A stretch of DNA of 43,433 bases from Candidatus Magasanikiibacteriota bacterium (GCA_021648085.1 JAKITS010000001.1:1-43433); one strand, 5' to 3'. Shown: positions 22,818-40,925, numbered from the stretch's first letter. Notes: generated by a model not told the origin, from the sequence alone. Program-made: numbers and translations.

Positions 22818-23432
22818 ATGGATAATATAGAAGGTCAAAACAATAAATTAAATCGTACACAAAAGACGGGGTTCGTCTTGTTGTTTGTGTTCACGCTTTT
22901 GGTTGTAGGTTTGGGTTTTTTGCAAATGAGAAACACTATTTACAGTCCTTTTGTGGTAAAAGTTGAAAACAATCAAGGTAAAATAGGTGTATCAGATGAA
23001 AATACAAAACTTCAAAATATAGACACAGATAGAGATGGTATAAATGATTATGAAGAATTATATTTTTACGAGACTAGTCCATATTTACCAGATACAGATT
23101 CAGATGGAATTGGTGATAAAGAAGAAATAACTGCAGGCACAGACCCAAACTGTCCAGAAAGTGAAGTTTGTGAAGAGGTTTATATTGCAAGCTCCACAAC
23201 AAACCTAAGCCCAATAAAAAATATTGGTTCTGTAGATGCTAGTGCGGTGCAGACAGGGGGTACTAGCATAGAAGACCTACAAAATATATTGCAAGATCCA
23301 GAAAAAGTTAGAAAATTATTATTAGATACTGGGCAAATTTCACAAGAGCAATTAGACGGGATAGATGACCAAACGCTAATGAGTTTAGTAGAGAAAATGC
23401 TAGCAGAGGAGTCTGGAAATATCACACCATAA
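22818..23432 (+). CDS. Membrane-anchored protein with thrombospondin-type-3-like Ca-binding repeats
   Basis: N-terminal TM helix (GFVLLFVFTLLVVGLGFL), then DTDRDGINDYEE and DTDSDGIGDKEE (DxDxDGxxDxxE). Its stop lies 1 nt before the giant ORF's ATG. Confidence 0.7.
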   Translation: MDNIEGQNNKLNRTQKTGFVLLFVFTLLVVGLGFLQMRNTIYSPFVVKVENNQGKIGVSDENTKLQNIDTDRDGINDYEELYFYETSPYLPDTDSDGIGDKEEITAGTDPNCPESEVCEEVYIASSTTNLSPIKNIGSVDASAVQTGGTSIEDLQNILQDPEKVRKLLLDTGQISQEQLDGIDDQTLMSLVEKMLAEESGNITP

Positions 23433-29400: not shown

Positions 29401-32043
29401 AATGGTGGTGGAGAAGTTTATTGTACTCAAAGTACATCTCGTGGTGCTGGGGAGTATGATGAGGGTATGTATATTTTTAAGAACTTTGGTGATTTGGATT
29501 CTATTAGTGGCGAACTCAATCCACCTTCAAATAATGATAAATTTGATAATATTTTTTTAAAAACAGGAAAAGCAGTAAAAAACCCATATATTGATTCTTT
29601 TTCAGGTTTTACATATTTTACACATCCTTATATAGAAAATTATGTAAATAAAACAAGTGATTCAAATGGAAAAGAAAACTTTTATTCACTTATGCAATCA
29701 TGGGCTTGGAAATATATAAACACAAATGCAAGAATTTTAAGATTGGAATTAAATGGCAATGGTTTTAGTGGTCGGGCAAGTGGTGATAAAGACACAACAG
29801 ATCCATATAAACAATATTTCTTTGCTCCGCAAGTTTATAATACAGCAGGAGTTGCTATGCATTCACCACGAATTTGGGATGATACTGTTCTTGGAATGGA
29901 ATATTATTATTATACTCAATTTAAAACAGGAGCGAACGATGATCTTTATGATGATAGAAATATTTTCACAGATTCAATGTCGGCAGAAAAAACTGCTGGA
30001 TTAGAAGATGATTTATACATATCTCCTATACAAAAAACTTTAATAGAAAGTGAGTTTGAAAAAGTTTATTTTGTTGGCTTAAAACATGTTAATAATTATG
30101 AACAGGGGATAACACCTGCGTTATTAACGACAGATTTTAGTTTAAATATAAAAGAGTTAAAACAAAGATTAGAGGACAATAAACCAAATAATGAATCTAT
30201 ATTTAAATCTGGAGTTTCTCAAGCGTTAGGTAGTCATTATTCAAAAAATTTAATGCTGGATGATAATTTGGGAGTTACTTGGTCTTATGTGTTAGAAAGA
30301 ACAGGTTCATCTTCGGAATGTGGTGGGTTGTTTTCTTATTGCGATTATGTAAACAATGAATTTATTCTAAATTATAATAATCCAGAAGTAAACGGAATTA
30401 GAAATCAAATAAATAGAAGATATGTTATTGTATTTTTTGAAGATATTGGAAGAAAAGGTGAAAGATTTTTACCTGTTTTTGTAAATAAAAATGGACCACC
30501 ATTAAATAGTACACAAGATCCTTTTTCTGCAGGATGCGTAGATGGACAGGGTGGTTATTTGGCAATTGGAATGGATTTTAATAGAGGTGGAGAATTTTTG
30601 GGATATATTTCTAAATGGTGTAATTCAACTAAAAGTAGTGGAACGGCAGGTATCCAACTTGCGACAATTGCAACATTAAATGATTATTGTACAGAATTTA
30701 CCTCTGTTTATAATCCAGATGAAGATACTACAAATAAAGCATGGACAGATAGGGTTTGGAAGTATGCTAGGGAAAATAGATTTGTAACCCCTTATAGACA
30801 AATTACTCTTAGCACATTATTACAACCTTTTGGATCTACTTTGCTTTCAATGAATAATTTGAATAAATATGATGGAAGTGGGGATTTCACAGAAAAATAT
30901 GTTTTGAATAATCCTATAAAAGGTGTTCCATATATGTGTGATTATTCTAATTTTACTGTATTTGATTTGAAAAATTATGCTTGTTTAGCTTTAAACAATG
31001 TAGGTTATCCAGACTCTTTAACAAGTAAATTATCAGAAGCCTCAGCAAGGTTTGCACCTGCTGGTTATGAATTTGGTAAAGATGCTATACAAGCTATTTT
31101 TGCAAAAATATTTACTCCTTCTATTGAAGAAGGCTTAAGTGAATTGGATTCAAATTGGGATAAAGAAATATTAATTACAAGTGAACTTAGAGATTTATAT
31201 CCACCTCAGATTTACTCACTTAATCCTGATAAATGTTTTAATATAAATGGAAAAAGTCAGACCTGTGTTGGTGCAGAAAAAAACTCAATAACAGTAAATG
31301 GAAAAAATGGAACTTTGTTAGATTATAATGGCGATGGTTTTCCAGATGAAGACAAAGATAAAAACGGTGAGACAGATTCTATAATTGGAGTTGGAAATAA
31401 ATCTGTTTCCTTAAACTTTTTTGCTTGGGCGGACGACAATAGAATGCCAATAAGAAGAATAATGGTAGATTGGAGTGATAATAGTCTAATTACAAATGAA
31501 AATAAAATGGGTTTTTATAAAAATAAAAAACCATTTTGTGGTGGTGAAACTGCAGAAAATGTAAAAGTATGTGTAAATAAGGCTACACGTTCAGATATAG
31601 AATATATTAAGACAGGTCTTACTTGTCAAGAAGATTCTGATTGTTCAAGTGATAATACTTGTAGAGATATAGGAGCTAGTGATAATTTTGGTTCATCATC
31701 TCGTGCTTGTGAAGAAGGGTATTTTGAATTTGGACATAGTTATACTTGTGGGCCAGAAGACGAAGGAAAAGATTATTGGACATTAGTTTCTGGAGAGATT
31801 GGTGGAGTTGCAAACTTTACATCAGGACAAAGAGATCAATTATCTAAATTTGGTGTTGGTGCAAATGATTATGTGTGTGTATTCCAACCAAAAGTTCAGG
31901 TTTTGGATAACTGGGGTTGGTGTAATACAAGTGATGGAACAGGTCAATATAATGATGATAATTTTGATTGTGATTTTGGTAATAGTGAAGTTTGGACGTA
32001 TTATAAAAATAAAATAATAATAATTCCTCCTAAAAAAGATTAA
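23434..32043 (+). CDS. Giant (2869 aa) secreted cysteine-rich surface protein with one CBM/jelly-roll-like module
   Basis: Uninterrupted ORF with a signal-like N-terminus (VIIGFVISTQVFIGLLFAGPVKA). It has many closely spaced Cys and a recurrent GC[RSEDGQ][AE][FYV] motif. Nt about 26545-27006 read like a CBM4/9-type beta-sandwich (GWDSSDG...HSLQV...YELSFWSRG...WKEYKLGPVEF...VYFIDNARL). A DGFPDEDKDKNGETD acidic loop lies near the C-terminus. Confidence 0.85.
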   Translation: MFKKTQGFARKVIIGFVISTQVFIGLLFAGPVKAGTMESAGSFINKFSGDSPIGDVVNEAADKAASKLGYPVVVTTDLGDYVEMAWQSIYEASLNALMGGFSHFMNQLAYDTALYVTSGGSGQGALVFQDGFGSYLEKTFEASTMAALGELEDHYGINLCEPNTEIKFFLNVGIQDLLLPEIGPPTPPACTWQKMSKGWSNAYYQTVNQLEGILDAPPIEVAFLESANLADSDFGIAFGAIDLVRKKAARDTEGAKNERLEGNGFKPVKDLVSGAIVTPAHLIGEEAEGLTGKSFAQINNTQVAGLYGSQALNVVIGASGIFLNNVASQMLKKIMQEGLLPVPIGDSSSFGSAGLGDYRRAAESAFSFFFTSVPTKQLNAYSLETIFAACPDNPGLNNCVIDSGMQRILQIAKQGTPLTVQEAVDQGMLDPNKPFISPKRLLDHNDVKTCYLKGFCYSNLQKLRKVRVLPVGFELAALRSDPDNLQAWTLGKVMAGFEDCTRDGDGKAIFDIAKPFCHLVDPNWTIKIPETRCESLVNGPELLDSNISNRKEECVDVSTCVTEGENGECLGDFGYCTEEKNVWRIEGETCPAEYTTCRNYVAQSGEINSYLSRTVDYGECRAESVGCRAYSTEKSGDIWTSSADASSRLKNLGRNQTIYFGSEINASTCPANAAGCSAFYTLNQEGEKGRLTYLKKAPDYLTCYDTQPATPEIDWPTTKADLSLLTNNDKCDAYAEVCLPEEVACDLYTPLAGGPELSGVIGNNICASECVGYDTFRQESTSFAPEEYPLYLIPTNGDVCSAQYAGCDEFTNIEAGSAGGETLEYYSDFKQCEKPDSGNDKVFYSWEGSVSEGFVLKVHHLSPIDDARNSYIQNLSLFANAKNDLVVGSPAYSDDTAQSLKNNYKSCNEKNYNILINDPFSIDSADEDCRAFYDDEGEVFYRLFAKTITVSNSCHKIRKTESRLFVDNTIGDQNSCDLKNGVWDGASCERCFNGGSYENGACIYQTISSPSESNSCPVSVNGCRAYVGNAGNNIREIMFDSFEPFDNSPNALLSAREGWDSSDGTGLSVVGEATQAGLHSLQVNSDIISREFDAGDITPNSFYELSFWSRGVPQNLDIIMKDDSGLGVSFTVNSITNSTALVSIGDNWKEYKLGPVEFKGAGVANIEFTRSAIGSTSLGVYFIDNARLTKVNDFTYLVKDSWQTSEGYNVPLSCDNTPEDSLPGFALGCEAFNDQLGTTYYATGFENLCRVEAVGCEPLLDTFNTTEGQDSELAQIFNAWCEGGVGECTISVDEPTSDRNNTQIQKKINIGSCNVDIDQDGCYISKIIVPSHIEIGDLDYVRVETTVIIPADTSIENPIYLTNSQKYKCSPQKLGCQEVALESHILPSNQPQAFEFSEQFVLSNPNNYQETLCQSDQVGCGEFRSDKNISYFVDPKITGGSVCVYKSIGASGSDNYGWFLDGIGSCSSGNGDLCKVDDDCSGDTNICENVGSTACYDGYIKQGGELGIWSNESVNYDGFVGACEQQYNACTELVDPADTSNNADGKSYFVVYDEKMQDQSGECGGQVSQNDGCVLFDKTDNPNKIYNSVETYKNSEDADPKFGPVNPVMDGVKDTNVILKVNRDRECSEWLACKTSVPFTDEKGVRTELCYQYDLCNESLPGVGCISWVGDDNENITLSPEEYVVRGTSWYDNEYTGYSLLNKYPVQDFVYVDFDLSDDADKELDDEFGDSLFLGYEFVPAPSFEQFGCVLNGVKKEQFQVCGLTNGGICTDNGQCIKPTDGAFIGGIEEKNEKSFRNSRLVLETLDVGICKSFPEKDSPFGFDIVVNSYKTLITNGVSATRKRITDKKRVFSGANTCQDGECSCEYKKVSYGGSVVDYWPLTKSDQEIPGGVCASGSLGGNPCNYNSDCSILSDEGLSSYGSCIKRFNTERRIGLRGFCLEYDLSRPIGNGEYACLTWLPVDASASKIDLHNYYPEAGYYPVPEYDAPNGGGEVYCTQSTSRGAGEYDEGMYIFKNFGDLDSISGELNPPSNNDKFDNIFLKTGKAVKNPYIDSFSGFTYFTHPYIENYVNKTSDSNGKENFYSLMQSWAWKYINTNARILRLELNGNGFSGRASGDKDTTDPYKQYFFAPQVYNTAGVAMHSPRIWDDTVLGMEYYYYTQFKTGANDDLYDDRNIFTDSMSAEKTAGLEDDLYISPIQKTLIESEFEKVYFVGLKHVNNYEQGITPALLTTDFSLNIKELKQRLEDNKPNNESIFKSGVSQALGSHYSKNLMLDDNLGVTWSYVLERTGSSSECGGLFSYCDYVNNEFILNYNNPEVNGIRNQINRRYVIVFFEDIGRKGERFLPVFVNKNGPPLNSTQDPFSAGCVDGQGGYLAIGMDFNRGGEFLGYISKWCNSTKSSGTAGIQLATIATLNDYCTEFTSVYNPDEDTTNKAWTDRVWKYARENRFVTPYRQITLSTLLQPFGSTLLSMNNLNKYDGSGDFTEKYVLNNPIKGVPYMCDYSNFTVFDLKNYACLALNNVGYPDSLTSKLSEASARFAPAGYEFGKDAIQAIFAKIFTPSIEEGLSELDSNWDKEILITSELRDLYPPQIYSLNPDKCFNINGKSQTCVGAEKNSITVNGKNGTLLDYNGDGFPDEDKDKNGETDSIIGVGNKSVSLNFFAWADDNRMPIRRIMVDWSDNSLITNENKMGFYKNKKPFCGGETAENVKVCVNKATRSDIEYIKTGLTCQEDSDCSSDNTCRDIGASDNFGSSSRACEEGYFEFGHSYTCGPEDEGKDYWTLVSGEIGGVANFTSGQRDQLSKFGVGANDYVCVFQPKVQVLDNWGWCNTSDGTGQYNDDNFDCDFGNSEVWTYYKNKIIIIPPKKD

Positions 32044-32047
32044 TAAA

Positions 32048-32082
32048 AAGGAAACCCCACTTCGAATGAAGTGGGGTTTTTG
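32048..32082 (+). terminator. Intrinsic terminator after the giant gene
   Basis: AACCCCACTTCgaatGAAGTGGGGTTtttt. Confidence 0.8.
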
Positions 32083-32104
32083 TTAAAGTAAGTAATTTCT
32101 TTTG

Positions 32105-32638
32105 TTAAAGTGAACAAGTTCCTTTATTATTACCATCTGAATTTACGAGAGAAAAGGAGTCTGGCGGAGAAAAAATTACAAGTGGAGAGTCAACAGGTTT
32201 ATTGTTTAGTGTTTTCTCACAAAACACCAAACATTCTCCGTCAACTTCATTTATAGAACAAGTTCTCCACTCACACTGTCCACCATTTGGACAACACCAG
32301 AAGTTATTATTCAACCATTCATAATCAGCACAAGGGCTAACCACAACCTCATCCTCTACCACATCCACGTTAGTCGTGTTTGTAGTATCGATTTCGGTCG
32401 CGTCGGCGGTATCACCAACAAATTCGTTGGCAACATCCGAACCATCTACCATATCGGTAGGTGGGTTTGCATTATCACAGCCAGCAAGCAATACGCTCAT
32501 CACTGTGACAAAAAGCATAGTAAAAATGCAACCGATTAGCCAAATCGTAAAGGGGTAACTAGCCTCCAAAGCCACAACGGCTACGGAGGGGACACGGCGA
32601 TGCTTCGAGTAAAAAGGATGTCCTTTTTGATGTTTCAT
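32105..32638 (-). CDS. Lipoprotein with a C-terminal 7-Cys module
   Basis: AAGGAGaaaatcATG at 32638 and lipobox VLLAGC. The C-terminus reads C-x11-CC-x5-C-x4-C-x8-C-x3-C (CADYEWLNNNFWCCPNGGQCEWRTCSINEVDGECLVFC). The longer ORF to 32794 would include the promoter and leader. Confidence 0.7.
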   Translation of the reverse strand: MKHQKGHPFYSKHRRVPSVAVVALEASYPFTIWLIGCIFTMLFVTVMSVLLAGCDNANPPTDMVDGSDVANEFVGDTADATEIDTTNTTNVDVVEDEVVVSPCADYEWLNNNFWCCPNGGQCEWRTCSINEVDGECLVFCEKTLNNKPVDSPLVIFSPPDSFSLVNSDGNNKGTCSL

Positions 32639-32731
32639 GATTTTCTCCTTTGTTTTCCCACAATTCTTGTGGGTTTTTCCGTTTTTGTAAATAACCCCTC
32701 TCGGGGCTAAATGTAAATGAACTATTACTAA

Positions 32732-32760
32732 AATATAGCATATTTTACTACTTTTGTCAA
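32732..32760 (-). promoter_or_regulatory. Strong promoter of the lipoprotein gene
   Basis: Minus strand: TTGACA (rc 32755-32760), 17-nt spacer, TGcTATATT (rc 32732-32740). Confidence 0.5.
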
Positions 32761-32837
32761 GGTTTTTGGAGTAAAAAGTCTTCAAAAAAGTCAAAAGTCT
32801 ATAAAGTTTGTAAAGTGAAAAGTTAGAAAACCTGCAT

Positions 32838-32926
32838 TTTCATTCCCGGCTCGATCGGGAATCCAGGGTTAAAAACAGTAAAACGTTAAATAAAACTGGA
32901 TCCCCAATCAAGTTGAGGATGACAGG
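32838..32926. repeat. Family-2 palindromic element
   Basis: TTCATTCCCGGCTCGATCGGGAATCCAGG ... CTGGATCCCCAATCAAGTTGAGGATGACAGG. Confidence 0.8.
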
Positions 32927-32976
32927 ACAGGGGGGGTCGAAAGTTTATAAAGTCCATAAAGTATAAAGTTTTTTTT

Positions 32977-33061
32977 CGTCATTCTCAGCTCGACTGGGAA
33001 TCCAAAATCTACAAATGTAAACTATTTTTATATAAAAATACATAAACTTTAATAATTACAT
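32977..33061. repeat. Family-2 half element plus unique tail; direct repeat partner of 42074..42158
   Basis: Aligns gaplessly to 42074-42158 (offset 9097 nt) at roughly three-quarters identity, with a perfect 28-nt block at 33030-33057 = 42127-42154 (atataaaaatacataaactttaataatt). Confidence 0.8.
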
Positions 33062-33143
33062 ATAAGATATATTAAGATTTGCTTCTGGATAGTAGTAGTC
33101 AGTAAAAAAACTATGATGGTGACTTATCTAAAAAAAGTATTAC

Positions 33144-33674
33144 TTATAAAGTTTGCGATTTAATCATTAAAGGCACATACCCCTCTTTAATAATGTCTGT
33201 AGGACTAGTACCTAACTTAAGGAGTAGTTCTTCTATTTTTTGTTCAATCTGCTTTCTATCATCCTCGTTACCCCTGCCTTCTATCTCAACAAAATAACCA
33301 AGATCTTTTATCAAATCAATATTAATTTCAAATGAGTTTAACATATATGTTTTCCTTGTCTTTTCTATCTTAACAACTTCAACATAATTATTATTTTTTA
33401 AAATACTTTCTAACTCATCAGGCTCATTTAATTCTAAGTCAACATCTGGCCATGCTGTATCATGTTTTTTAGATTTAGATTTAAAAGTTAGTTGATTGCC
33501 ATTTTCTGTTTTTCTAATGCGAAGAATTAAATTTCTGTCTATATCAGACACATGTTTAAAATAAATGTCAATTTGTCTTGACTCTTGAGAAAAAATTGCA
33601 TTTAAATCTTTCAATTTATTTACAAGATTAATTGCATTACTTTCTTTTATTTTAGCTCTGATTTCTATTTCCAT
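33144..33674 (-). CDS. CYTH-domain protein (class IV adenylyl cyclase CyaB / triphosphate tunnel metalloenzyme family)
   Basis: N-terminal MEIEIRAKI (the EXEXK signature), ILRIRK, LTFKSK, KTRKTY and YFVEIEG strands typical of the CYTH tunnel. 176 aa. Confidence 0.8.
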   Translation of the reverse strand: MEIEIRAKIKESNAINLVNKLKDLNAIFSQESRQIDIYFKHVSDIDRNLILRIRKTENGNQLTFKSKSKKHDTAWPDVDLELNEPDELESILKNNNYVEVVKIEKTRKTYMLNSFEINIDLIKDLGYFVEIEGRGNEDDRKQIEQKIEELLLKLGTSPTDIIKEGYVPLMIKSQTL

Positions 33675-33732
33675 ATTTATTTTGATTATTGAGTATATGT
33701 ATAATTTTAAATCACTTTACAATAAAAGACAA

Positions 33733-33768
33733 ATAAAAAAACCGCCATATGTAATATGCATAACGGTT
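33733..33768 (-). terminator. Intrinsic terminator after the radical SAM gene
   Basis: Minus strand: ACCGUUAUGcauauuaCAUAUGGCGGU (two G.U pairs) followed by seven U. Confidence 0.55.
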
Positions 33769-33773
33769 TTACT

Positions 33774-34742
33774 TTATTTCTTTAAGAGGTGTTCTTTAAA
33801 TTCAGAAAAAATTCTATGCTGAAAAAAATCTTCAAAAGGTAATACAAAAGGTTCTTTTTGCCTATGCAAACAACTTCTTACCTTCAGCCTGTCACCTTCT
33901 TTTTCTAATCTTGGTCCATAAACATACTCATGGCATTCACCATTTTGCTCAAGTGAACAGTTATTACAAATACTTGCAAGCATGAAAGGTCTAATTAATT
34001 TTATTTTAAAGATAAAGCCACTTTCTACTCTCATGGTTATTGAGAAAGAGGAGCTTCCATTTGTTACAATAGCTTCTACAGGAACTGCTTTTAGTGTCGT
34101 ACTCATTCTACTTAACGAAGCATACGATTCCTTTGGAATACCCAATTGATTCATGGCACGCCACTCTAAATTGTTAGTCTCACAGAATTCTGCAATTTCG
34201 AGTGCATCCAGTTCATTTGAGCCAACACATGTATTAACCTTAACAGATATCAAACTTGATATTTCTTTTAAAAAAAGAAATTGTGTAGTAATAATTGTCT
34301 TCTGACCCCATCTAATGGAGCGTGGGGGTTCCATTGTATTAGACAAAGAAGTAGGATTTAATGTGTGCAAACTAACATTTAAGCTTGACAGTCCACTTTC
34401 AATGCATTCAAGATATCGATCAAGATAAGTTACTCCGTTTGTGGTCATTTTTACATCAAAACCTTCTTGCTTGCATCTTTTTATGTATTTAATTACGTTT
34501 GGATGAATTGAAGGCTCACCACCAGTAAAATGAACTTCGCTAATATTCATTTCTCGTCTAAACTTATCAAGAATAGTTATCAATTTTTCTATATCATCTA
34601 TGGGTGTTGAATACTGATTGCCTTCCATGTGGCAAAAATGACAACTAAATTGACAAGGTGTGTGCAATTTAACACGAATTGTTTTCAATACTTTATATAC
34701 AATCCTACCTTGTTTCTCAAGTTCAGACAGTATATTTTTCAT
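33774..34742 (-). CDS. Radical SAM enzyme, MoaA-like (GTP 3',8-cyclase family architecture)
   Basis: CQFSCHFCHMEG (CxxxCxxC), VHFTGGEPS, KMTTNGV, LNVSLHTL and VKVNTCV. The C-terminal ICNNC...C...RLKVRSCL resembles the MoaA auxiliary-cluster tail. The ATG overlaps the kinase TGA (ATGA). Confidence 0.75.
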   Translation of the reverse strand: MKNILSELEKQGRIVYKVLKTIRVKLHTPCQFSCHFCHMEGNQYSTPIDDIEKLITILDKFRREMNISEVHFTGGEPSIHPNVIKYIKRCKQEGFDVKMTTNGVTYLDRYLECIESGLSSLNVSLHTLNPTSLSNTMEPPRSIRWGQKTIITTQFLFLKEISSLISVKVNTCVGSNELDALEIAEFCETNNLEWRAMNQLGIPKESYASLSRMSTTLKAVPVEAIVTNGSSSFSITMRVESGFIFKIKLIRPFMLASICNNCSLEQNGECHEYVYGPRLEKEGDRLKVRSCLHRQKEPFVLPFEDFFQHRIFSEFKEHLLKK

Positions 34743-35338
34743 AATACACCTACTTTTTGCTGTTGTTCATTCAATATTGATTTAACAGAATTGAAAACAC
34801 TTTCTTCAGTCTTTTTCGTTGTATCTATTACATAAAACACGTTTTTAAGAGACATGAAATATAATTGTGCTCTATTTAATACAAACTCATCTAGATGGGT
34901 ATATTTTTGTTTTTTAATTTCGCGTTTCCAAATTCTTCTATTTCGTTCTCGTGGGTCACAGGTAAGTAGTATACTTATGTTAGGTGTTATTATAGGAAGT
35001 AAATTGATATCAACACAATCAACAATAACACCCATAACTTTATGCATTATTATTATCGAGTATATATAACGATCAGCAAATACCTTATGTCCTGCATTTA
35101 ATAATGTTGCTAATTCTTTTTGAAACGCAATAACACATGTAATATAGAAGTAAAATCGTACTTCTGGATACTTTAGCAACTCCACTCGTAGTCTAATACT
35201 TTTAAATAATTCTAGCATTGTGTATAAGTAATAATAACCAAGCTCTTCTTCAAGTTTTTTAGCTAGTGTGGTTTTTCCAACTCCGTCGACACCTTCAATA
35301 ACTACAAAATTATAGAACTTTGTTTGTGTACACGTGAT
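34739..35338 (-). CDS. Thymidylate-kinase-like P-loop nucleotide kinase; start codon unresolved
   Basis: The frame is open from 35344. The P-loop FVVIEGVDGVGKTTLAKKLEEELG (35249-35320) lies upstream of the first in-frame ATG/GTG/TTG (35218). ADRYIYS and a basic LID-like DPRERNRRIWKRE follow. GGGAGGA SD at 35339-35345. Confidence 0.6.
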   Translation of the reverse strand: MTCTQTKFYNFVVIEGVDGVGKTTLAKKLEEELGYYYLYTMLELFKSIRLRVELLKYPEVRFYFYITCVIAFQKELATLLNAGHKVFADRYIYSIIIMHKVMGVIVDCVDINLLPIITPNISILLTCDPRERNRRIWKREIKKQKYTHLDEFVLNRAQLYFMSLKNVFYVIDTTKKTEESVFNSVKSILNEQQQKVGVL

Positions 35339-35351
35339 TCCTCCCTATTCT

Positions 35352-35528
35352 CTACTTGATTTCTAGAATTTCCCACTCACAGATAGTACTTCTTACAGAA
35401 AGTTCTATAACTTCTCCAACTTCCTTTAGTAAAAGCTTTCTGGCAATCGGAGTTGTTATTCCAATCACAAAGACAGTGTCTTTATTGTCTTCAAGTTTAC
35501 TTCCGCCAACACCATTTCTTTGACACAA
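35352..35528 (-). pseudogene. greA: 5'-truncated greA remnant (GreA/GreB C-terminal domain only)
   Basis: Minus-frame translation ...GVGGSKLEDNKDTVFVIGITTPIARKLLLKEVGEVIELSVRSTICEWEILEIK* matches the GreA C-terminus (S-PIARaLiGk.vGD.v.v..P.G...yeIl.I). Only a 58-codon frame from a TTG exists, and no N-terminal coiled-coil is encoded upstream. Confidence 0.55.
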
Positions 35529-35571: not shown

Positions 35572-36180
35572 ATGTTTAAAGAAAAAAGTGGTATTATATT
35601 ATTTGTTTTATTGTCTGCATTTATAATTGGAGGAATTTTTATTTTGTTTAATGTTTTTCAAGATGTGGAAGAGTGGGGAAGTGAGGAAGTTGATAGCGTT
35701 GTAGTAGTAGAAACAGAAAAAAACGATGAAGAAGAAAAACCAAAAGAAGATATTATTGAAATAGTAACCTCCACTATAGAAAATATTGAAGTTGTAGAAA
35801 AAGAAATAATTGTGGAGAAAATAGTAGAAAAAGTGGTGTATATAGAAAAAGAGGTAGAAAAAAAAATAGAAAAACCTATTGAAAAGAATTTAAAACCAGT
35901 TGTAAAAGCCGAGCTTGCTGTATGTTCAGATGATATGCGCTTTCAATGTTGGGATTTACTAACTTGCGAAGAAAATGGAGAGGGTTATGGATCACCAACG
36001 CTTTGGACTGCAAACAATTTGGAGGAGGTGGCGCCAGCTTGTGGACAGTGGACAACGGACTCTGCAAAACTTCCAACAAGTTGGAGTTGTTGTTGTGGTT
36101 ATAGTGAAGATTGGCAAGAAGAAGGTGGAAGTAAAGCGTGTTATTCACCAGTTTACACATCAAACCTAACTTTTGAATAA
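35572..36180 (+). CDS. Membrane-anchored protein: E/K/I/V low-complexity stalk plus one 'QCWD...CCCG' Cys module
   Basis: TM helix IILFVLLSAFIIGGIFILF, a stalk EKEIIVEKIVEKVVYIEKEVEKKIEK, and the module at about 35923-36159 (CSDDMRFQCWDLLTC...GYGSPTLW...SWSCCCGYSEDW...C). Confidence 0.7.
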   Translation: MFKEKSGIILFVLLSAFIIGGIFILFNVFQDVEEWGSEEVDSVVVVETEKNDEEEKPKEDIIEIVTSTIENIEVVEKEIIVEKIVEKVVYIEKEVEKKIEKPIEKNLKPVVKAELAVCSDDMRFQCWDLLTCEENGEGYGSPTLWTANNLEEVAPACGQWTTDSAKLPTSWSCCCGYSEDWQEEGGSKACYSPVYTSNLTFE

Positions 36181-36181
36181 T

Positions 36182-36922
36182 ATGTCAGACAAAAAGCTAA
36201 AAATTATTTTAACAATTATAATAGTTCCATTTTTAATTTGGGGATTGTTTACTTTACTCACAGTGCAAAATGAGGAGATAGAAGAAGTTCAAGAAGAAAA
36301 ACAAGAAGTCGTAATAGAAGAGTTAGATATAGAAATAATAGACCTAGAAGGTCCAAAACAAAAATATATAAATAAAACCCACGGTTTCTCTTTTGAGTTT
36401 CCTGATGAGATGGAATATATACCTTCTATTTATGTTAAAGATATTGAATTTATAAAGAATTATTTTAAGTTGGAAGAAAAAAAATGCTTAAAAAAAGATA
36501 AGCCTAATGTTTGTAGAATATTTCCAAATGGATTGAGTATACTTTTGGAAGTGGATTCATATCGTAATAACAAGTGCAATGTTAATTTGCTTAATAAGGA
36601 TATAACTTTTAATTTAAATTTGTATAGTAGTTTTGATAGAAATGTTAGATTACAAGTATTTAAAACAAAAAAAATAGATAATATAGAAATTAAAACAGCA
36701 CGAGTGGACGAGTTTGTAAAAAGAGAAAGTGGTATTGAATATGGTTATCATACAAAATTAAAGACTTTATTTTGTATCGATGATAAAATAATTAAATTTA
36801 CTTTAGAGGATAATTACGTGGAAAATGATGTGAATATAAATGGTATTAAAAATAAATACAATTTATCGTATGAATATTTTCAAGAAATAGTAAATTCATT
36901 GGAGTTTTTAAATAAAAAATAA
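36182..36922 (+). CDS. N-terminally anchored paralog 1 of a conserved-ends / variable-core family
   Basis: MSDKKLKIILTIIIVPFLIWGLFTLL, DLEGPKQKYINKTHGFSFEFPDE, C-terminal IVNSLEFL. The ATG at 36182 has the same aataatATGtcagacaaaa context as paralog 3. Confidence 0.7.
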   Translation: MSDKKLKIILTIIIVPFLIWGLFTLLTVQNEEIEEVQEEKQEVVIEELDIEIIDLEGPKQKYINKTHGFSFEFPDEMEYIPSIYVKDIEFIKNYFKLEEKKCLKKDKPNVCRIFPNGLSILLEVDSYRNNKCNVNLLNKDITFNLNLYSSFDRNVRLQVFKTKKIDNIEIKTARVDEFVKRESGIEYGYHTKLKTLFCIDDKIIKFTLEDNYVENDVNINGIKNKYNLSYEYFQEIVNSLEFLNKK

Positions 36923-36925
36923 TAT

Positions 36926-37696
36926 ATGTTAAATAAAAAATATAAAATTTTAATATTATTGTCCATATTATTATTTTCTGTTGGTTTGGTTTCTTTTTTA
37001 TTAACTAAAAATAATAATATTGTTAATACAGACAATGTTATAAAAGAATTAATAAAACAACCTTTAAATACAGAATTAGAAGTAAAATTAGTAGATTTGA
37101 AAGGTCCAAAACAAAAATACATAAATAAAACTTATGGATTTTCATTAGAGTTTTTAGATGAAATAGAACTTTTTAATAATAATTATAAAATTAACAATTT
37201 AAAAGAATCTTTTACAAACGAAAGGACTTGTTTAAAAGGGTCAAAAAATAGTAATTGTAATATTTTAGATAAAATATATAATTTCCGTCTTTTTTATTGG
37301 ATAGGCTTTGACCTAAATATGGAAAAAGAATTAGAGCAAATTTGCAATAATTCATTTATTGAAGAAAAAAATAGAGTTTATTTAAATGAGTATAAAAATT
37401 TAAACCAAAATAATAAATTTAACTTTAAAGAGATTGGTGGAAAAATTAATAATTTAAATTTTAAAGGAATAGAATTTAATAAAAAAATAATTGAACCAGT
37501 TGGAGGTCAGCCTGAAATTAGAGTAAAAACACACAGAAAAAACAGCGATATAAATATATATTTATGTTTAAATAAAGATACATTATTAAATTTTAATGGA
37601 AATATTAATACTTATATCGATGATACAAAAAGATTTAATATTTTGTATAAACAGATTTACGAAGTTGTAAATTCACTAGAATTATTATCGGAATAA
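36926..37696 (+). CDS. Paralog 2 of the same family
   Basis: TM anchor, DLKGPKQKYINKTYGFSLEFLDE, C-terminal VVNSLELLSE. Confidence 0.7.
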   Translation: MLNKKYKILILLSILLFSVGLVSFLLTKNNNIVNTDNVIKELIKQPLNTELEVKLVDLKGPKQKYINKTYGFSLEFLDEIELFNNNYKINNLKESFTNERTCLKGSKNSNCNILDKIYNFRLFYWIGFDLNMEKELEQICNNSFIEEKNRVYLNEYKNLNQNNKFNFKEIGGKINNLNFKGIEFNKKIIEPVGGQPEIRVKTHRKNSDINIYLCLNKDTLLNFNGNINTYIDDTKRFNILYKQIYEVVNSLELLSE

Positions 37697-37697
37697 T

Positions 37698-38390
37698 ATG
37701 TCAGACAAAAGACTTAAAATTATTTTAACAATTGTAATAGTCCCATTTTTAGTGTGGGGATTGTTTACTTTGCTTACAAAACAAGGAAGTAAGATAGAAG
37801 AAACCCAAGAGCAACAACAAGAGGTTGCAATAGAAGAGTTAGATATAGAAATAATAGACCTAGAAGGTCCAAAACAAAAATATATAAATAAAACCCACGG
37901 TTTCTCTTTTGAATTTCCTGATGAGGTTGAGTATCAAGATTTTGGAAAACCAGATTATGCAGACTATTATGTGTTTAATTTGGCAAATAAAGAGTGTATG
38001 CAGTTTGACGAGTGTGGAACTATGGGAATTTATAATGAATGGTTAAACTATTCTATAAACATTCACAATTTGCTTGATAGTGAAAAATGTAATCAAGAAT
38101 TTATTGATAAAAAAATAAGTTACGACACAGGACTTATTGATGGTGAGTATGTTCAAGTTGTTGAATCTTTGAAAACAATAGAAAATGAGAATTTCTTGAT
38201 TAAAGAGCTTTTATATACAAGTAATTATGAAAGTCCTGGTACTTTTATGTCTGCTTATATTTGTTTGGATAATAATTATATTTATTTGCAAGGTGTTAGT
38301 GATATAAACATAAAAGAAGCCGAAAAATTTAATCCTTTGCATAAAGAATTTGAAGAAATTATAAATTCATTAGAATTGCTGTCTAATTAA
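37698..38390 (+). CDS. Paralog 3 of the same family
   Basis: MSDKRLKIILTIVIVPFLVWGLFTLL, an identical DLEGPKQKYINKTHGFSFEFPDE, C-terminal IINSLELLSN. Nt 37829-37912 are identical to 36313-36396. Confidence 0.7.
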   Translation: MSDKRLKIILTIVIVPFLVWGLFTLLTKQGSKIEETQEQQQEVAIEELDIEIIDLEGPKQKYINKTHGFSFEFPDEVEYQDFGKPDYADYYVFNLANKECMQFDECGTMGIYNEWLNYSINIHNLLDSEKCNQEFIDKKISYDTGLIDGEYVQVVESLKTIENENFLIKELLYTSNYESPGTFMSAYICLDNNYIYLQGVSDINIKEAEKFNPLHKEFEEIINSLELLSN

Positions 38391-38486
38391 GACGGACTTC
38401 TTTTACAAAATATCTAGCTTGTAGGTATTTTGTAGTAAGGAGGTAGGCTCTTTACAATCTATGTAAACAGAACAGAGAATGGGAAG

Positions 38487-40925
38487 ATGAAAACAAAAAA
38501 AGCGTTTCTGTGTATTTTTAGCTGTTTTTTATTTTTTAGCTGTGAATTTCTAGATTACAAAGAAAAAGATGGGATTTTACCACAAATAGATGATGGAAAA
38601 GGTGGAAACTATTTTGAGGATACCGGAGAATTGACTTCTTCTGGGACTAATTTTGAGGCACCTTGGGCTCCTGGAGATGAGTGGAATTATGGTGGTGGTT
38701 GGTGTTCAAATGTTAATAATCCTAAATATGAAAGTAGCGCTCATTTTGTAGGTAAAAAAGATAGAAACTGTATTGATATAAATTATATTAATAAAGGTAA
38801 TAGTGATTTGGGAATGCCTTTTTTTGCAGTTTTCGATGGTTGTGTTGTAAAAAATGAATTAAGTGGTGGTTATGGAAATTTATTGATTATTCAATCTTCT
38901 GAAGATAAAAATATTCAGTTCAAAATGGGTCATCACGATGAGATTAGTTTTTTAAAGGTTGGCGAATGTGTAAAAAAAGGTCAAATAATTAGTTATTGTG
39001 GCTCTAAGGGGGATTCTACTTTTGCACATGGTCATTATTGTATTGAAGAAAAACAAAACGGAGTTTATTCATCAATTCCATTTAATAAAATTGGTGAACA
39101 TGATTATAGCGAAAAGGATTGTTTAAAAGGTGATATTATAAACATAAAATCAACAAACGACTTCGAATTCAAAAGAATAGAAGAGGAATTTGGCACAAAC
39201 TTTTTTGGTGATATTTTGTATAATAATTTAGGTTATAGAGGAATTCATTGGTATTACGATTTTGTTGTAAATGGAAGCACATCATTTTCATCAACAAACC
39301 AAAATAATGTCCTAATTCAAGATTGGCAAAATTACACAGAAAATCGTCGCTCGGCGATTGTCTACGATGTACTTCATGGTGCTCGCAGGGGTTATGTTGT
39401 TCACTCTGGTTTTGTAGAAGATCCAAACCACGGTTGGCTTCAAGATTCAAGCGGTGTAAACACCTCGGGTCCTCGCTCAAAACTTGGCGTTCCATTATCA
39501 AATGAATTTGTAGAAAATGGAAGAACTTATCAAAACTTTATGTTTGGGTATCTGAGTTGGAAATATGGTTATGGTGTGTCTTATCAGGAGTATCCTACAG
39601 ATGGATATCCTGTTGGTGAAGTCTCACTGGACTTGGCAAATGATACAAAAACTCTAACAGAAAAAATAAAAGTACAAGATTATCAATATGCAGTAAATTG
39701 GAGTAAAAAGTTTTCTTATCTTTTTGTAGACGCTTACAACAAAAGTCAAAAAGATGGATATTGGCCAGGGTTTACAGTTTATAATAATGTTACAAATGAG
39801 GCGGCTGTGGATTATATTTATAGTTATCCAAATTACTATAAGTATTTTATTCAGGAATTTTACAATTCGCACAAGGCTTTTTTGAAAAATTCTACAATAA
39901 TTTATGACCCAAATAATAACACCAGTTTAATTACAAATAATTCAGAAATTTTAGGTGGAGATAACAAAGCTTATGTTGTTAAAGGTGGGTTTTGGAATTT
40001 GTATAAACAAATATATATAAACGGGCAAGATGCTTTTGATTTTTGTGGTGCACCAGTAATGGGTGAAAGTAGAGATGTTCCTTATTGGGTTCAAGAAAAA
40101 GCTGGAGGAGTCAAATCTTACCAGATTTTTGAAAGATGTTTTTTGACTTGGGGTATTACACAAAATATAAATGTATATATTTATAACGGTGGACTTTTCG
40201 ATTGTTATAATTTTACGGAAAATGTAAATAACCCAACAAATTATATAGTCTCACAATGTGATATATTAGAGCCTTGCACAGAAAATGAAGGGCAATATAA
40301 CGCAGATTTGGGTGATTATTGTGATGAATTTCAACAACTTTATTGTTGGGATGCACAAACTTGTGATGGAAGTGGTTATTTTAGTCCAGATATTTGGAGT
40401 CCAGTACTTCCAGAAGAATTTCCTCCAAAATGTGTCTCAAGTTATGGTTTAGAAATACAATATCCAGAAAGTTGGGAATGTTGTTGTGGTTTTCCTATAG
40501 ATTGGGATGGAAGCGGTGGAAATAATTGTGTGGAAAAATGGGGAGAATATGGTGATGTTGAGCTTGTCGGCACAGCACCAGATCTCGAACCTGAACCTGA
40601 ACCAGATCCACCTCCTCCTACGCAAGAACCAGAACCAAATCCTCCAGCACCTGAACCAGAGATAAACTGTCCTCGAACTTGTCTGCCGGGTATGAAATTT
40701 CAATGTTGGGATATGTTGTCGTGTGAAAATTATGGAAGTGGGTATGGATCGCCCCCTCTTTGGACCAGTGATTGTTATTCGGACACTCCTCCAAATTGTG
40801 GAAATTGGAGTGGCGAACAAGACAAAAAGCCAACATATTGGCAGTGTTGTTGTGGTTATGATATTGAATGGATGGATGGTCAGAACAATGCTTGTAGGTC
40901 TTCTGTTTACAATTCCTTTAATTAA
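38487..40925 (+). CDS. Secreted or lipid-anchored M23/LytM-like peptidase with LGFP-like repeats and two C-terminal 'QCWD...CCCG' modules
   Basis: Signal peptide ending in FLFFSC. M23-like core at about 38664-39056 (CIDI...GGYGNLLII...VKKGQIISYCGSKGDSTFAHGHY). LGFP-like SKLGVPLSNEFVENGRTYQNFMFGYLSW and GAPVMGES...YQIFERCFLTW. Modules at 40320-40529 and 40680-40910 are joined by a PEPEPDPPPPTQEPEPNPPAPEPE linker. Confidence 0.7.
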   Translation: MKTKKAFLCIFSCFLFFSCEFLDYKEKDGILPQIDDGKGGNYFEDTGELTSSGTNFEAPWAPGDEWNYGGGWCSNVNNPKYESSAHFVGKKDRNCIDINYINKGNSDLGMPFFAVFDGCVVKNELSGGYGNLLIIQSSEDKNIQFKMGHHDEISFLKVGECVKKGQIISYCGSKGDSTFAHGHYCIEEKQNGVYSSIPFNKIGEHDYSEKDCLKGDIINIKSTNDFEFKRIEEEFGTNFFGDILYNNLGYRGIHWYYDFVVNGSTSFSSTNQNNVLIQDWQNYTENRRSAIVYDVLHGARRGYVVHSGFVEDPNHGWLQDSSGVNTSGPRSKLGVPLSNEFVENGRTYQNFMFGYLSWKYGYGVSYQEYPTDGYPVGEVSLDLANDTKTLTEKIKVQDYQYAVNWSKKFSYLFVDAYNKSQKDGYWPGFTVYNNVTNEAAVDYIYSYPNYYKYFIQEFYNSHKAFLKNSTIIYDPNNNTSLITNNSEILGGDNKAYVVKGGFWNLYKQIYINGQDAFDFCGAPVMGESRDVPYWVQEKAGGVKSYQIFERCFLTWGITQNINVYIYNGGLFDCYNFTENVNNPTNYIVSQCDILEPCTENEGQYNADLGDYCDEFQQLYCWDAQTCDGSGYFSPDIWSPVLPEEFPPKCVSSYGLEIQYPESWECCCGFPIDWDGSGGNNCVEKWGEYGDVELVGTAPDLEPEPEPDPPPPTQEPEPNPPAPEPEINCPRTCLPGMKFQCWDMLSCENYGSGYGSPPLWTSDCYSDTPPNCGNWSGEQDKKPTYWQCCCGYDIEWMDGQNNACRSSVYNSFN

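Follow-up and report, generated by a model that had tools for sequence, protein, structure and literature searches.

Three co-directional genes on the minus strand of a 43,433-nucleotide stretch of a Candidatus Magasanikiibacteriota genome (GCA_021648085.1 JAKITS010000001.1:1-43433; the window) encode a Tmk-like kinase, a MoaA-like radical SAM enzyme and a CYTH protein. On balance, we favour the reading that the trio belongs to a rare, horizontally scattered and uncharacterized cassette for a nucleotide-modifying small-molecule pathway coupled to RNA polymerase, of which the window holds a partly decayed copy. The cassette most likely makes a modified nucleotide, and its core is best read as a 'twitch' radical SAM enzyme that would act together with a CYTH enzyme on a phosphorylated nucleoside, in neither molybdenum cofactor (Moco) synthesis nor a canonical viperin pathway. 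Of the genes in the window copy, those for the radical SAM enzyme and the CYTH protein are intact, whereas the kinase gene has lost its ATG and the type A GreA-like gene is a stub.

Results

A preliminary description, made from the sequence alone, had reported the three co-directional minus-strand genes, and our reading of the ORFs agrees. The features of the locus are as follows.

33144-33674, minus strand: CYTH/triphosphate-tunnel enzyme, 176 aa, intact (Pfam CYTH, 70.8 bits, 1.7e-19)
33738-33770, minus strand: hairpin and U-tract in the radical SAM-CYTH intergenic region, resembling a terminator or attenuator
33774-34742, minus strand: MoaA-like 'twitch' radical SAM enzyme, 322 aa, intact (Pfam Radical_SAM the sole Pfam match)
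34739-35335, minus strand: Tmk-like (VakA/PDC-M51B-like) P-loop nucleotide kinase, open frame, no canonical start
35340-35345, minus strand: ribosome-binding site GGGAGG, followed after 4 nt by an ACG (direct reading and alignment with the related locus L090)
35352-35528, minus strand: GreA-like type A 3' remnant, C-terminal domain only, 58 aa, pseudogene

As had been noted, the TGA of the kinase gene (34741-34739) and the ATG of the radical SAM gene (34742-34740) share an ATGA, through which the two genes are translationally coupled. The terminator hairpin proposed ahead of the CYTH gene was also found, just past the radical SAM stop, as a 12-bp stem with a 9-nt loop followed by U7 (-10.4 kcal/mol, z = -2.41). 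An equivalent hairpin is present in L090, the closest relative (-13.7 kcal/mol). A simple terminator scan missed the window hairpin because its loop is 9 nt long. The locus had further been called repeat-bounded and assigned to an accessory or defence-type context, and neither statement held: the repeats all lie at 35800-40900, on one side of the locus and within genes for paralogous secreted proteins, and the locus is flanked by core genes and by genes for surface proteins. In addition, no consistent defence island was found in the flanks of related loci. A tRNA scan of the window gave no hits, and a promoter scan yielded no more sites than in shuffled sequence. The reported absence of Moco partners was borne out among the window ORFs of at least 100 aa, and the window holds no Gre-like gene apart from the remnant.

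The kinase frame contains the motifs FVVIEGVDGVGKTT and ADRYIYS, on which its identification as a P-loop kinase had been based. It matches Pfam Thymidylate_kin at 46.8 bits (cut-off 27) but the dTMP kinase model TIGR00041 at only 51.3 bits, below the cut-off of 83.25, and is thus placed in the broad Thymidylate_kin family only. Both GVDGVGKTT of the P-loop and DRYIYS are conserved in 15 kinase homologues, conforming to GxxGxGKT and DR[YFH]. Against PADLOC models, which for VakA and PDC-M51B come without curated cut-offs, the kinase scored 95.4 bits with PDC-M51B (profile positions 3-183 of 191) and 76.1 bits with VakA (positions 3-162 of 163); PDC-M51A, the partner gene of PDC-M51B, had no match here. 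The likeness to the viperin-kinase arrangement drawn in the preliminary description is therefore upheld, with VakA (76 bits) and PDC-M51B (95 bits) scoring above dTMP kinase (51 bits).

Upstream, the kinase frame is closed by a TAG (35347-35345), and no ATG, GTG or TTG lies ahead of the P-loop; the first canonical start, ATG 35218, is downstream of it. In an ungapped DNA alignment with L090, the ACG at 35335-35333 stands opposite the L090 ATG, 4 nt after GGGAGG, which points to loss of the kinase start codon in the window copy. A 5' frameshift (GTG 35333 plus a 1-nt indel) was rejected and a start-codon change preferred, since this alignment runs without gaps, pairs the ACG with the ATG and shows homologous codons downstream. 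The source gene call, P0197, begins at ATT 35299 ('MEGVDG...').

All of the motifs reported for the radical SAM protein, CQFSCHFC, FTGGEPS, MTTNG and the C-terminal cysteine tail CNNC...C...RSCL, were read in the 322-aa ORF. Its AF2 model (pLDDT 91.6) found its best fold match in MoaA (1tv7/2fb2; TM 0.62, full length), and its best NCBIfam match was moaA_archaeal, at 88.9 bits against a cut-off of 325. Nevertheless, the protein scored below the MoaA equivalog cut-offs (TIGR02668, 88.9 vs 325.25; TIGR02666, 77.7 vs 284.05; NF001199, 80.4 vs 231) and below that for viperin (NF038283, viperin_w_prok; 69.5 vs 180). Its PADLOC matches were to pVip models only (59-71 bits, 70.7 at best), covering the N-terminal core only. 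Of the profiles that had been proposed for the three proteins, Radical_SAM, Thymidylate_kin and CYTH were each matched; there was no Pfam match to the MoaA C-terminal domain, Mob_synth_C (PF06463), in the radical SAM protein.

Among 21 homologues of the radical SAM enzyme, C30 and C37 of the N-terminal CX3CX2C (C30-x3-C34-x2-C37) are invariant and C34 is present in 20; TGGEP, K168, R195, C259, C262, C270 and C291 are also invariant. Compared with MoaA (GTP 3',8-cyclase; 1TV7/1TV8/2FB3), the enzyme has the same fold over its full length (TM 0.62-0.63) and shares the CX3CX2C, a C-terminal cysteine-rich site, the element R-L-x-x-x-G-x-L-x-x-C (RLxxxGxLxxC) and the TxN and NxS motifs, but identity is only ~20%, and the C-terminus of the family is a variable helix with no GG tail. 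The auxiliary cysteines are arranged as CX2CX13C in MoaA, whereas the family has four invariant cysteines in CX2CX7C...X20C. The GTP triphosphate ligands of MoaA are R17, K69, R71, K163 and R192 (S. aureus numbering). Of these, R17, K163 and R192 have counterparts in R23, K168 and R195, while K69 and R71 are replaced by E69 and H71. The suggestion that a structure be inspected for the GTP-binding residues and auxiliary cysteines of MoaA thus received a divided answer, with three of the five residues kept, two lost, and a four-cysteine motif of the family's own. The layout had been described as that of MoaA rather than viperin; the fold and C-terminal layout are indeed MoaA-like, but the protein is not a MoaA.

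The best PDB profile match was AbmM (8WM2; E = 8.6e-18), over residues 22-127 in the N-terminal half. The nearest characterized neighbours in fold or sequence, i.e., MoaA, viperin, BlsE, DesII and AbmM, have nucleotides or sugar nucleotides as substrates. The substrate is GTP for MoaA, CTP for viperin, cytosylglucuronate for BlsE and a TDP-sugar for DesII, and AbmM is the albomycin thiofuranose enzyme. By these comparisons, the radical SAM enzyme appears to represent a MoaA-like lineage that is neither MoaA nor a canonical viperin.

The claim of a CYTH triphosphate-tunnel protein was confirmed, as the thresholds of both Pfam CYTH and TIGR00318 were passed (87.6 bits for the latter; cut-off 57.95). 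The catalytic set ExE, RxR, K, KxR, ExNxD and ExE is invariant in 13 cassette homologues. Given that TIGR00318 describes class IV adenylate cyclase, cyclization instead of hydrolysis is possible for the CYTH enzyme. Characterized CYTH members are mostly tri- or polyphosphatases, and sequence does not separate cyclase from phosphohydrolase activity in this family. In some relatives of the cassette, the position of the third enzyme alternates between CYTH and NUDIX. The cassette CYTH thus resembles CyaB-type class IV adenylate cyclases and triphosphate tunnel metalloenzymes in thresholds passed and in catalytic acidic and basic residues, but differs in that it is a conserved partner of a radical SAM enzyme, often with translational coupling of the two genes. 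To our knowledge, no such conserved pairing has been described before for the CYTH family.

The greA fragment in the window matches only the last ~55 residues of type A GreA-like proteins (150-166 aa) and scores 34.8 bits against an HMM of the cassette GreA_A proteins. This 'truncated greA' had been cited as a marker of context. It is indeed truncated, but a GreA-like gene is adjacent in 16 of 18 related loci, and the fragment is the 3' remnant of the cassette's own GreA-like gene, not an incidental neighbour. The closest known counterparts of the GreA-like proteins are the GreA/GreB/Gfh1/DksA secondary-channel factors: types A and B align with GreA models over their full length, coiled coil and C-terminal domain included, yet full-length relatives score 37-41 bits where the cut-offs are 139-167. 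In type A, D41/E44 of the coiled-coil tip are absent and replaced by an invariant GAMxS[RH]xDT, with S43, D46 and T47 invariant; type B, which is missing from the window, keeps two acidic residues at the tip and has a recurrent SSE[ST]WHDN. Unlike those of the canonical group, the cassette GreA-like genes are linked to a radical SAM gene and sometimes fused to it, with type A in P0096 and P0130 and type B in P0097. Canonical Gre factors work through the secondary channel of RNA polymerase. Binding to RNA polymerase is assumed for the GreA-like proteins, as predicted purely by homology.

Eighteen non-redundant related loci, nearly all labelled Patescibacteria, were collected in a forward set, with radical SAM proteins 37-62% identical to that of the window. 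A kinase gene was adjacent to the radical SAM gene in 17 of the 18 loci and a clear CYTH gene in 13, one more being CYTH-like with NUDIX; the order and orientation of the genes, the GreA-like gene included, vary. The kinase-radical SAM-CYTH adjacency that had been singled out for a check in relatives therefore recurs, even in distant ones. In a reverse set of 80 metagenome loci, retrieved by the GreA-like tip motif, a kinase was present in 57 and a radical SAM enzyme of the same lineage in 54. Among the loci scored as GreA-only, two examples, L222 and L211, have another MoaA-like radical SAM gene directly upstream. No moaC, moaB, moaD/E, moeA or molybdoenzyme gene appeared among the window ORFs of at least 100 aa or in the related loci. 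The radical SAM family is rare, with 132 cluster representatives at E <= 1e-30 among 1.84 billion. One fusion protein, P0194, carries a weak TIR_2 match (21 bits, cut-off 28) and a NUDIX box ahead of its radical SAM domain.

The radical SAM-CYTH pair also occurs in more than 60 Streptomyces genomes, where the two genes are each other's sole conserved neighbours, outside any recognizable cluster and with no adjacent kinase or Gre-like gene. On plasmid p2 of Bacillus cereus CF4-51, the pair (WP_071715044 and WP_071715043) lies in an operon with the order ATP-grasp/radical SAM/CYTH/hypothetical/L-amino-acid ligase/MFS, beside a cyclodipeptide synthase cluster. One of its two ATP-grasp ligases has an L-amino-acid-ligase C-terminal domain, and again there is no adjacent Gre-like gene or kinase. 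Since the Streptomyces and Bacillus versions have neither neighbour, the link to RNA polymerase may be lineage-specific.

Discussion

In the pathway that we propose, the Tmk-like kinase would turn a salvaged NMP into an NDP or NTP substrate, the radical SAM enzyme would use its SAM cluster and four-cysteine auxiliary site to remodel the ribose or base, and the CYTH enzyme, or in some relatives a NUDIX substitute, would remove or cyclize the phosphate chain. The Gre-like proteins would provide self-protection or a delivery or co-factor arm. Three elements of this scheme are inferred: which step precedes which, what the substrate is, and what the Gre-like proteins do. Given that Gre factors use the secondary channel and that the cassette is tied to GreA-like factors in Patescibacteria, the product would most likely act on transcription. 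The window copy, having no intact Gre-like gene and no canonical kinase start, may be inactive. A more specific version, which we put forward tentatively and consider possible though not probable, is that the Gre-like factor, adjacent or fused, docks the radical SAM enzyme or its modified-nucleotide product on RNA polymerase, at the channel by which NTPs enter, with the product blocking, marking or reprogramming transcription. If this were true, the cassette would be an undescribed class of RNA polymerase effector system, for phage exclusion or regulation, and the radical SAM-CYTH core in Streptomyces and Bacillus would make a nucleoside-type metabolite. We know of no earlier report linking radical SAM chemistry to secondary-channel factors of RNA polymerase.

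Pairs of radical SAM enzyme and kinase that remodel nucleotides have yielded the antiviral chain terminators of viperins and nucleoside antibiotics such as albomycin and 4'-thiothymidine. What sets the cassette apart is a different radical SAM lineage, an unusual four-cysteine site, a dedicated CYTH enzyme and, in Patescibacteria, the GreA-like partners. As in pVip with VakA and eukaryotic viperin with CMPK2, its radical SAM gene lies beside a Tmk-family kinase, but the enzyme has the MoaA-type C-terminal cysteine domain, together with CYTH and Gre-like partners. The cassette follows the same radical SAM, kinase and phosphohydrolase logic as thmABC and albomycin AbmM/AbmG, ThmA being likened by description only. 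However, its fold match to AbmM (TM 0.54) is weaker than that to MoaA, its kinase is Tmk-like and not clearly of the dNK/AbmG type, its phosphohydrolase is a CYTH protein, and the thmABC and albomycin clusters, as described, have no Gre-like partners. In Photorhabdus, thmABC comprises a radical SAM enzyme, a nucleoside kinase and an NTPase, and makes 4'-thiothymidine, with the NTPase conferring self-resistance (PMC12691670). Because cultivable B. cereus and numerous Streptomyces carry the core pair, its chemistry can be tested directly. It could yield a new nucleotide metabolite and a new inhibitor or regulator of RNA polymerase, and it could assign a function to the orphan CyaB-like proteins of the CYTH family.

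[quoted passage not shown] The best models for the kinase are defence-associated (PDC-M51B, 95-107 bits; VakA, 76), the only PADLOC matches of the radical SAM enzyme are to pVip, its rare family is also patchy, the P0194 fusion carries its TIR_2 match and NUDIX box, and, 5 kb away from one of the related loci, there is a type I restriction-modification gene. Against this, the enzyme is well under the viperin cut-off and has an auxiliary four-cysteine site, which viperins are not known to have, the CYTH and Gre-like proteins have no PADLOC match, the related loci have no consistent defence island in their flanks, and the TIR match is itself below its cut-off. The B. cereus operon, with its ATP-grasp ligases and MFS exporter, points to a secreted antimetabolite at least as much as to an antiviral role. 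A small gene cluster making an antimetabolite of nucleoside or peptidyl-nucleoside type, directed against competitors or against the host of an episymbiont and with CYTH/NUDIX and Gre-like proteins as self-resistance, would fit that operon and the cyclodipeptide synthase cluster beside it, the thmABC precedent of an NTPase as resistance gene, and the AbmM profile match. The Patescibacteria cassettes, however, have no neighbouring exporter or ligase and the Streptomyces pair stands alone, and we regard this reading, too, as somewhat unlikely.

Tight linkage to Gre-like factors, the fusion proteins, a CYTH enzyme above the class IV adenylate cyclase cut-off and the conserved coiled-coil tips (S43/D46/T47 in type A, SSE[ST]WHDN in type B) would also suit a regulatory alarmone, a modified or cyclic nucleotide made by the radical SAM and CYTH enzymes and acting on RNA polymerase with the Gre-like factor, comparable to ppGpp and DksA. 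That a NUDIX hydrolase can replace CYTH, that the distribution is unusually rare and patchy for a core regulator and that no sensor or input domain is evident make this unlikely. Still less probable is protein modification, with the invariant tip of the Gre-like protein as the target of the radical SAM enzyme, as in EF-P or diphthamide modification, and the kinase and CYTH as auxiliaries. Minimal pairs of radical SAM and GreA-like type A genes exist with neither kinase nor CYTH (L222, L211), fusions of the two occur, the tip GAMxS[RH]xDT does not vary, and twitch and SPASM radical SAM enzymes often have peptides as substrates. Yet radical SAM-CYTH pairs with no Gre-like gene are common in Streptomyces and present in B. 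cereus, the partners are nucleotide enzymes (kinase, CYTH or NUDIX), and nucleotides rather than proteins are the substrates of the closest relatives. An ordinary moaA for Moco synthesis, for which the best fold match and the top NCBIfam name would speak, we consider to have a negligible chance, in view of scores of 88.9 against 325 and 77.7 against 284, the missing Mob_synth_C and C-terminal GG, the loss of K69 and R71, and conserved partners that are kinase, CYTH and Gre-like genes but never moaC, the partner of MoaA.

A full-text literature search found no published account of the cassette; the one preprint on CYTH and radical SAM concerns an unrelated SAM hydrolase. A viral origin was likewise rejected, with no close homologue in IMG/VR and only partial matches, at 31% identity, in GenBank phages. 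Four IMG/VR contigs do carry full-length relatives, with 24-26% identity, but no CYTH match was seen on any of the four. Finally, a distant relative of the kinase, P0211, is surrounded by housekeeping genes.

Gene content and layout of the cassette in the window

The cassette copy in the window comprises four features, all on the minus strand and within 33144-35528. In order, these are:

35352-35528, minus strand, GreA-like remnant of 58 aa
between TAG 35347-35345 and TGA 34741-34739, minus strand, kinase frame (ORF bounds)
34742-33774, minus strand, radical SAM gene (ORF)
33674-33144, minus strand, CYTH gene (ORF)

Two features of this layout in the preliminary description were confirmed. The stop codon of the kinase overlaps the start codon of the radical SAM gene (ATGA), and a hairpin (12-bp stem, then U7; -10.4 kcal/mol, z = -2.4) lies directly 3' of the radical SAM stop, ahead of CYTH. 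The same hairpin and U-tract element is present in L090, the closest relative of the window locus.

By profile search, the CYTH protein exceeded the thresholds of Pfam CYTH and of the NCBIfam equivalog for class IV adenylate cyclases (87.6 vs a cut-off of 57.95 for the latter). The kinase, described earlier as Tmk-like, is a member of the Thymidylate_kin superfamily (46.8 bits) but fell below the dTMP kinase equivalog cut-off (51 vs 83). It scored much higher with the PADLOC models PDC-M51B, a defence-candidate kinase (95 bits), and VakA, a viperin-associated kinase (76 bits), than with the dTMP kinase model.

The radical SAM protein has a MoaA-like fold

In Pfam, the radical SAM protein matched the generic Radical_SAM domain only, and profile searches detected no Mob_synth_C domain in it. 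Its best named model was archaeal MoaA (88.9 bits vs a cut-off of 325); the viperin model gave 69.5 (cut-off 180). In an AF2 model (pLDDT 91.6), the best structural match was MoaA over the full length (TM 0.62-0.63, approximately 20% identity), which establishes the fold class, followed by BlsE, SuiB, AbmM, DesII and viperins. Among PDB sequence profiles, AbmM ranked first (E = 8.6e-18, N-terminal half) and MoaA second. The proposed MoaA rather than viperin layout is therefore upheld for the fold, but the protein does not reach the MoaA cut-off.

In the cassette family, R17, K163 and R192 of S. aureus MoaA are retained, as are its TxN and NxS motifs. In contrast, K69 and R71 are replaced by E and H, the MoaA GG tail is absent, and the C-terminus has four invariant cysteines, compared with three in MoaA. 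An ordinary moaA is very unlikely. The loss of two basic phosphate ligands would suit a cassette substrate with fewer phosphates, e.g., an NDP, which is what a Tmk-type NMP kinase would make.

The family is rare. Approximately 50 homologues of about 318 aa (37-62% identical) were found in a set of 5.8 billion proteins, and just 132 cluster representatives of 1.84 billion matched at E <= 1e-30. Nearly all of the nearest relatives are labelled Patescibacteria. Species-representative genomes with close homologues include Uhrbacteria, Moranbacteria, Saccharibacteria, Paceibacterota, Yonathbacteria and Yanofskybacteria, together with Parcubacteria-group and Daviesbacteria MAGs and one MAG labelled Pseudomonadota.

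Kinase, CYTH and GreA-like genes are linked to the radical SAM gene

Partners adjoining the radical SAM gene were counted in 18 non-redundant loci. The adjacency seen in the window recurred: a Tmk-like kinase was present in 17/18 loci and a clear CYTH in 13/18, with one further CYTH-like protein with NUDIX, while 16 of the 18 had an adjoining GreA-like gene. The arrangement seen most often is GreA-like type A, kinase, radical SAM, CYTH, GreA-like type B. Both gene order and orientation differ among the loci, and this variation favours a functional link over inherited synteny.

Types A and B are distinct families, with the tip motifs GAM[EQI]S[RH][YS]DT and SSE[ST]WHDN, respectively. Both align full-length to GreA models, with scores far under the cut-offs. 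A reverse search with the type A tip motif fetched 80 metagenome loci, of which 57 contained the kinase, 24 the standard radical SAM gene and 30 a related, radical SAM-like protein (~340 aa). No partner was seen in 13, several of which are short contigs. In two examples of the remainder, L222 (3434-4540) and L211 (3961-4983), another MoaA-like radical SAM gene lies directly upstream of type A, and neither kinase nor CYTH is present. This third MoaA-like type is marked by a 'GLDGVLKPCG' element and by GG at its C-terminus.

The gene for the ~340-aa protein (L175 6036-7067, L191 5947-6978, L197 5909-6952, L186 5871-6890) adjoins a type A gene and the kinase. The protein lacks the N-terminal CX3CX2C and ends in 'LRLTVTPFCNFNC...WC'. 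As its Pfam Radical_SAM match begins at model position 28, the cluster-binding segment looks to have been circularly permuted to the C-terminus.

Three fusion cluster representatives join radical SAM and a complete GreA-like domain in a single polypeptide: type A in P0096 and P0130, and type B in P0097. The P0096 gene (locus L243) is followed by an overlapping Tmk-like kinase gene. Two other radical SAM domains are preceded by different modules, i.e., a weak, sub-threshold TIR_2 match (21 bits) and a NUDIX-box region in P0194 (699 aa), and a SorC-type sugar-binding domain in P0060 (606 aa).

A radical SAM-CYTH core occurs in Streptomyces and Bacillus

More than 60 Streptomyces genomes hold radical SAM relatives (24-27% identity) that share the C-terminal CX2CX7C...C motif with the cassette enzyme. 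Their sole conserved neighbour is a CYTH-like gene immediately upstream; the flanks differ. NCBIfam (June 2026) lacked a dedicated model for the Streptomyces protein, and PADLOC matched it through generic pVip models only. A 30% identical gene, named merely "radical SAM protein" by PGAP, lies on Bacillus cereus CF4-51 plasmid p2 (NZ_CP063160.1 149179-155743). It overlaps the CYTH gene. The operon runs ATP-grasp, radical SAM, CYTH, hypothetical protein (405 aa), ATP-grasp L-amino-acid ligase, MFS transporter, and lies beside a cyclodipeptide synthase/P450 pair. This operon looks like a small natural-product cluster, and it places the core pair in a strain that can be cultured. The minimal core is radical SAM plus CYTH.

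The association first noticed in the window is real and amounts to more than a single orphan gene. The data point to an uncharacterised cross-phylum radical SAM-CYTH module, unexpectedly linked to Gre-like factors; no published description of the cassette was found in the searchable literature. We propose that the kinase would phosphorylate a nucleoside monophosphate and that the radical SAM enzyme would remodel the nucleotide. CYTH, or NUDIX in some cassettes, might then remove or cyclise the phosphate chain, releasing the product or protecting the producer's nucleotide pool. The Gre-like factors may link the product to the secondary channel of RNA polymerase, acting protectively or as a co-factor. 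A precedent for this logic is Photorhabdus thmABC, a cluster that pairs a radical SAM enzyme with a nucleoside kinase and an NTPase; it makes 4'-thiothymidine, and the NTPase confers self-resistance (PMC12691670). The cassette may serve an antiviral, an antibacterial or a regulatory purpose, the defence role being hypothetical.

The window copy is eroded

All family invariants are kept in the window's radical SAM and CYTH genes, save the clade-specific substitutions F32 and V104, and their catalytic motifs are intact. The cassette copy is nevertheless eroded. Its kinase frame has no ATG, GTG or TTG from the upstream TAG to the P-loop. In an ungapped DNA alignment with L090 (radical SAM 62% identical), ACG 35335-35333, 4 nt after GGGAGG, stands opposite the L090 ATG, and the codons downstream are homologous. 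Judged from this alignment, the kinase 5' end looks like a start-codon change; a frameshift is disfavoured on the same grounds. The source's gene call for the kinase, P0197, starts at ATT 35299 ("MEGVDG...") and misses the first beta strand, present in all kinase homologues.

The 35352-35528 remnant, the only Gre-like gene in the window, aligns solely with the final third of the full-length homologues. The "truncated greA" of the preliminary description is indeed a fragment, but of a GreA-like gene that is part of the cassette. In L090, the type A position upstream of the kinase is filled by a divergently transcribed protein (1-255) that resembles the N-terminal part of a helix-turn-helix protein or transposase, so type A was lost or displaced there too.

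Surroundings of the cassette

Other window genes encode NusA, YidC, GroEL, a release factor, Sua5, KsgA, a 2869-aa surface protein, tandem secreted paralogues and an M23 peptidase. Every repeat falls within 35800-40900; the trio is therefore not bounded by them, contrary to the initial view of the locus. A GC content of approximately 30%, the 984-kb contig and the labels of the nearest relatives together suggest that this is probably a small Patescibacteria genome. GC skew is negative across 32000-35000 only, i.e., a lipoprotein-like ORF and the cassette segment, consistent with both lying on the minus strand amid plus-strand genes.

Three tandem paralogues (249, 256 and 230 aa) at 36173-38390 share a signal-anchor N-terminus, with direct repeats D1 and D2 (65-91% identical) between them. 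A Cys-rich module, 'QCWD..C..G.GYGSP.LW ... W.CCCGY..W', at 35572-36180 and 38487-40925 has one copy in a 202-aa protein and two copies at the C-terminal end of the 812-aa M23 peptidase (repeats D3-D5). The C-terminus of the lipoprotein-like ORF (32105-32794) is likewise cysteine-rich. Finally, the single 2869-aa ORF at 23434-32043, presumably a giant surface protein, has a signal-peptide-like N-terminus and many cysteines, and is preceded by a protein (22818-23432) that carries a bacterial TSP3 repeat.
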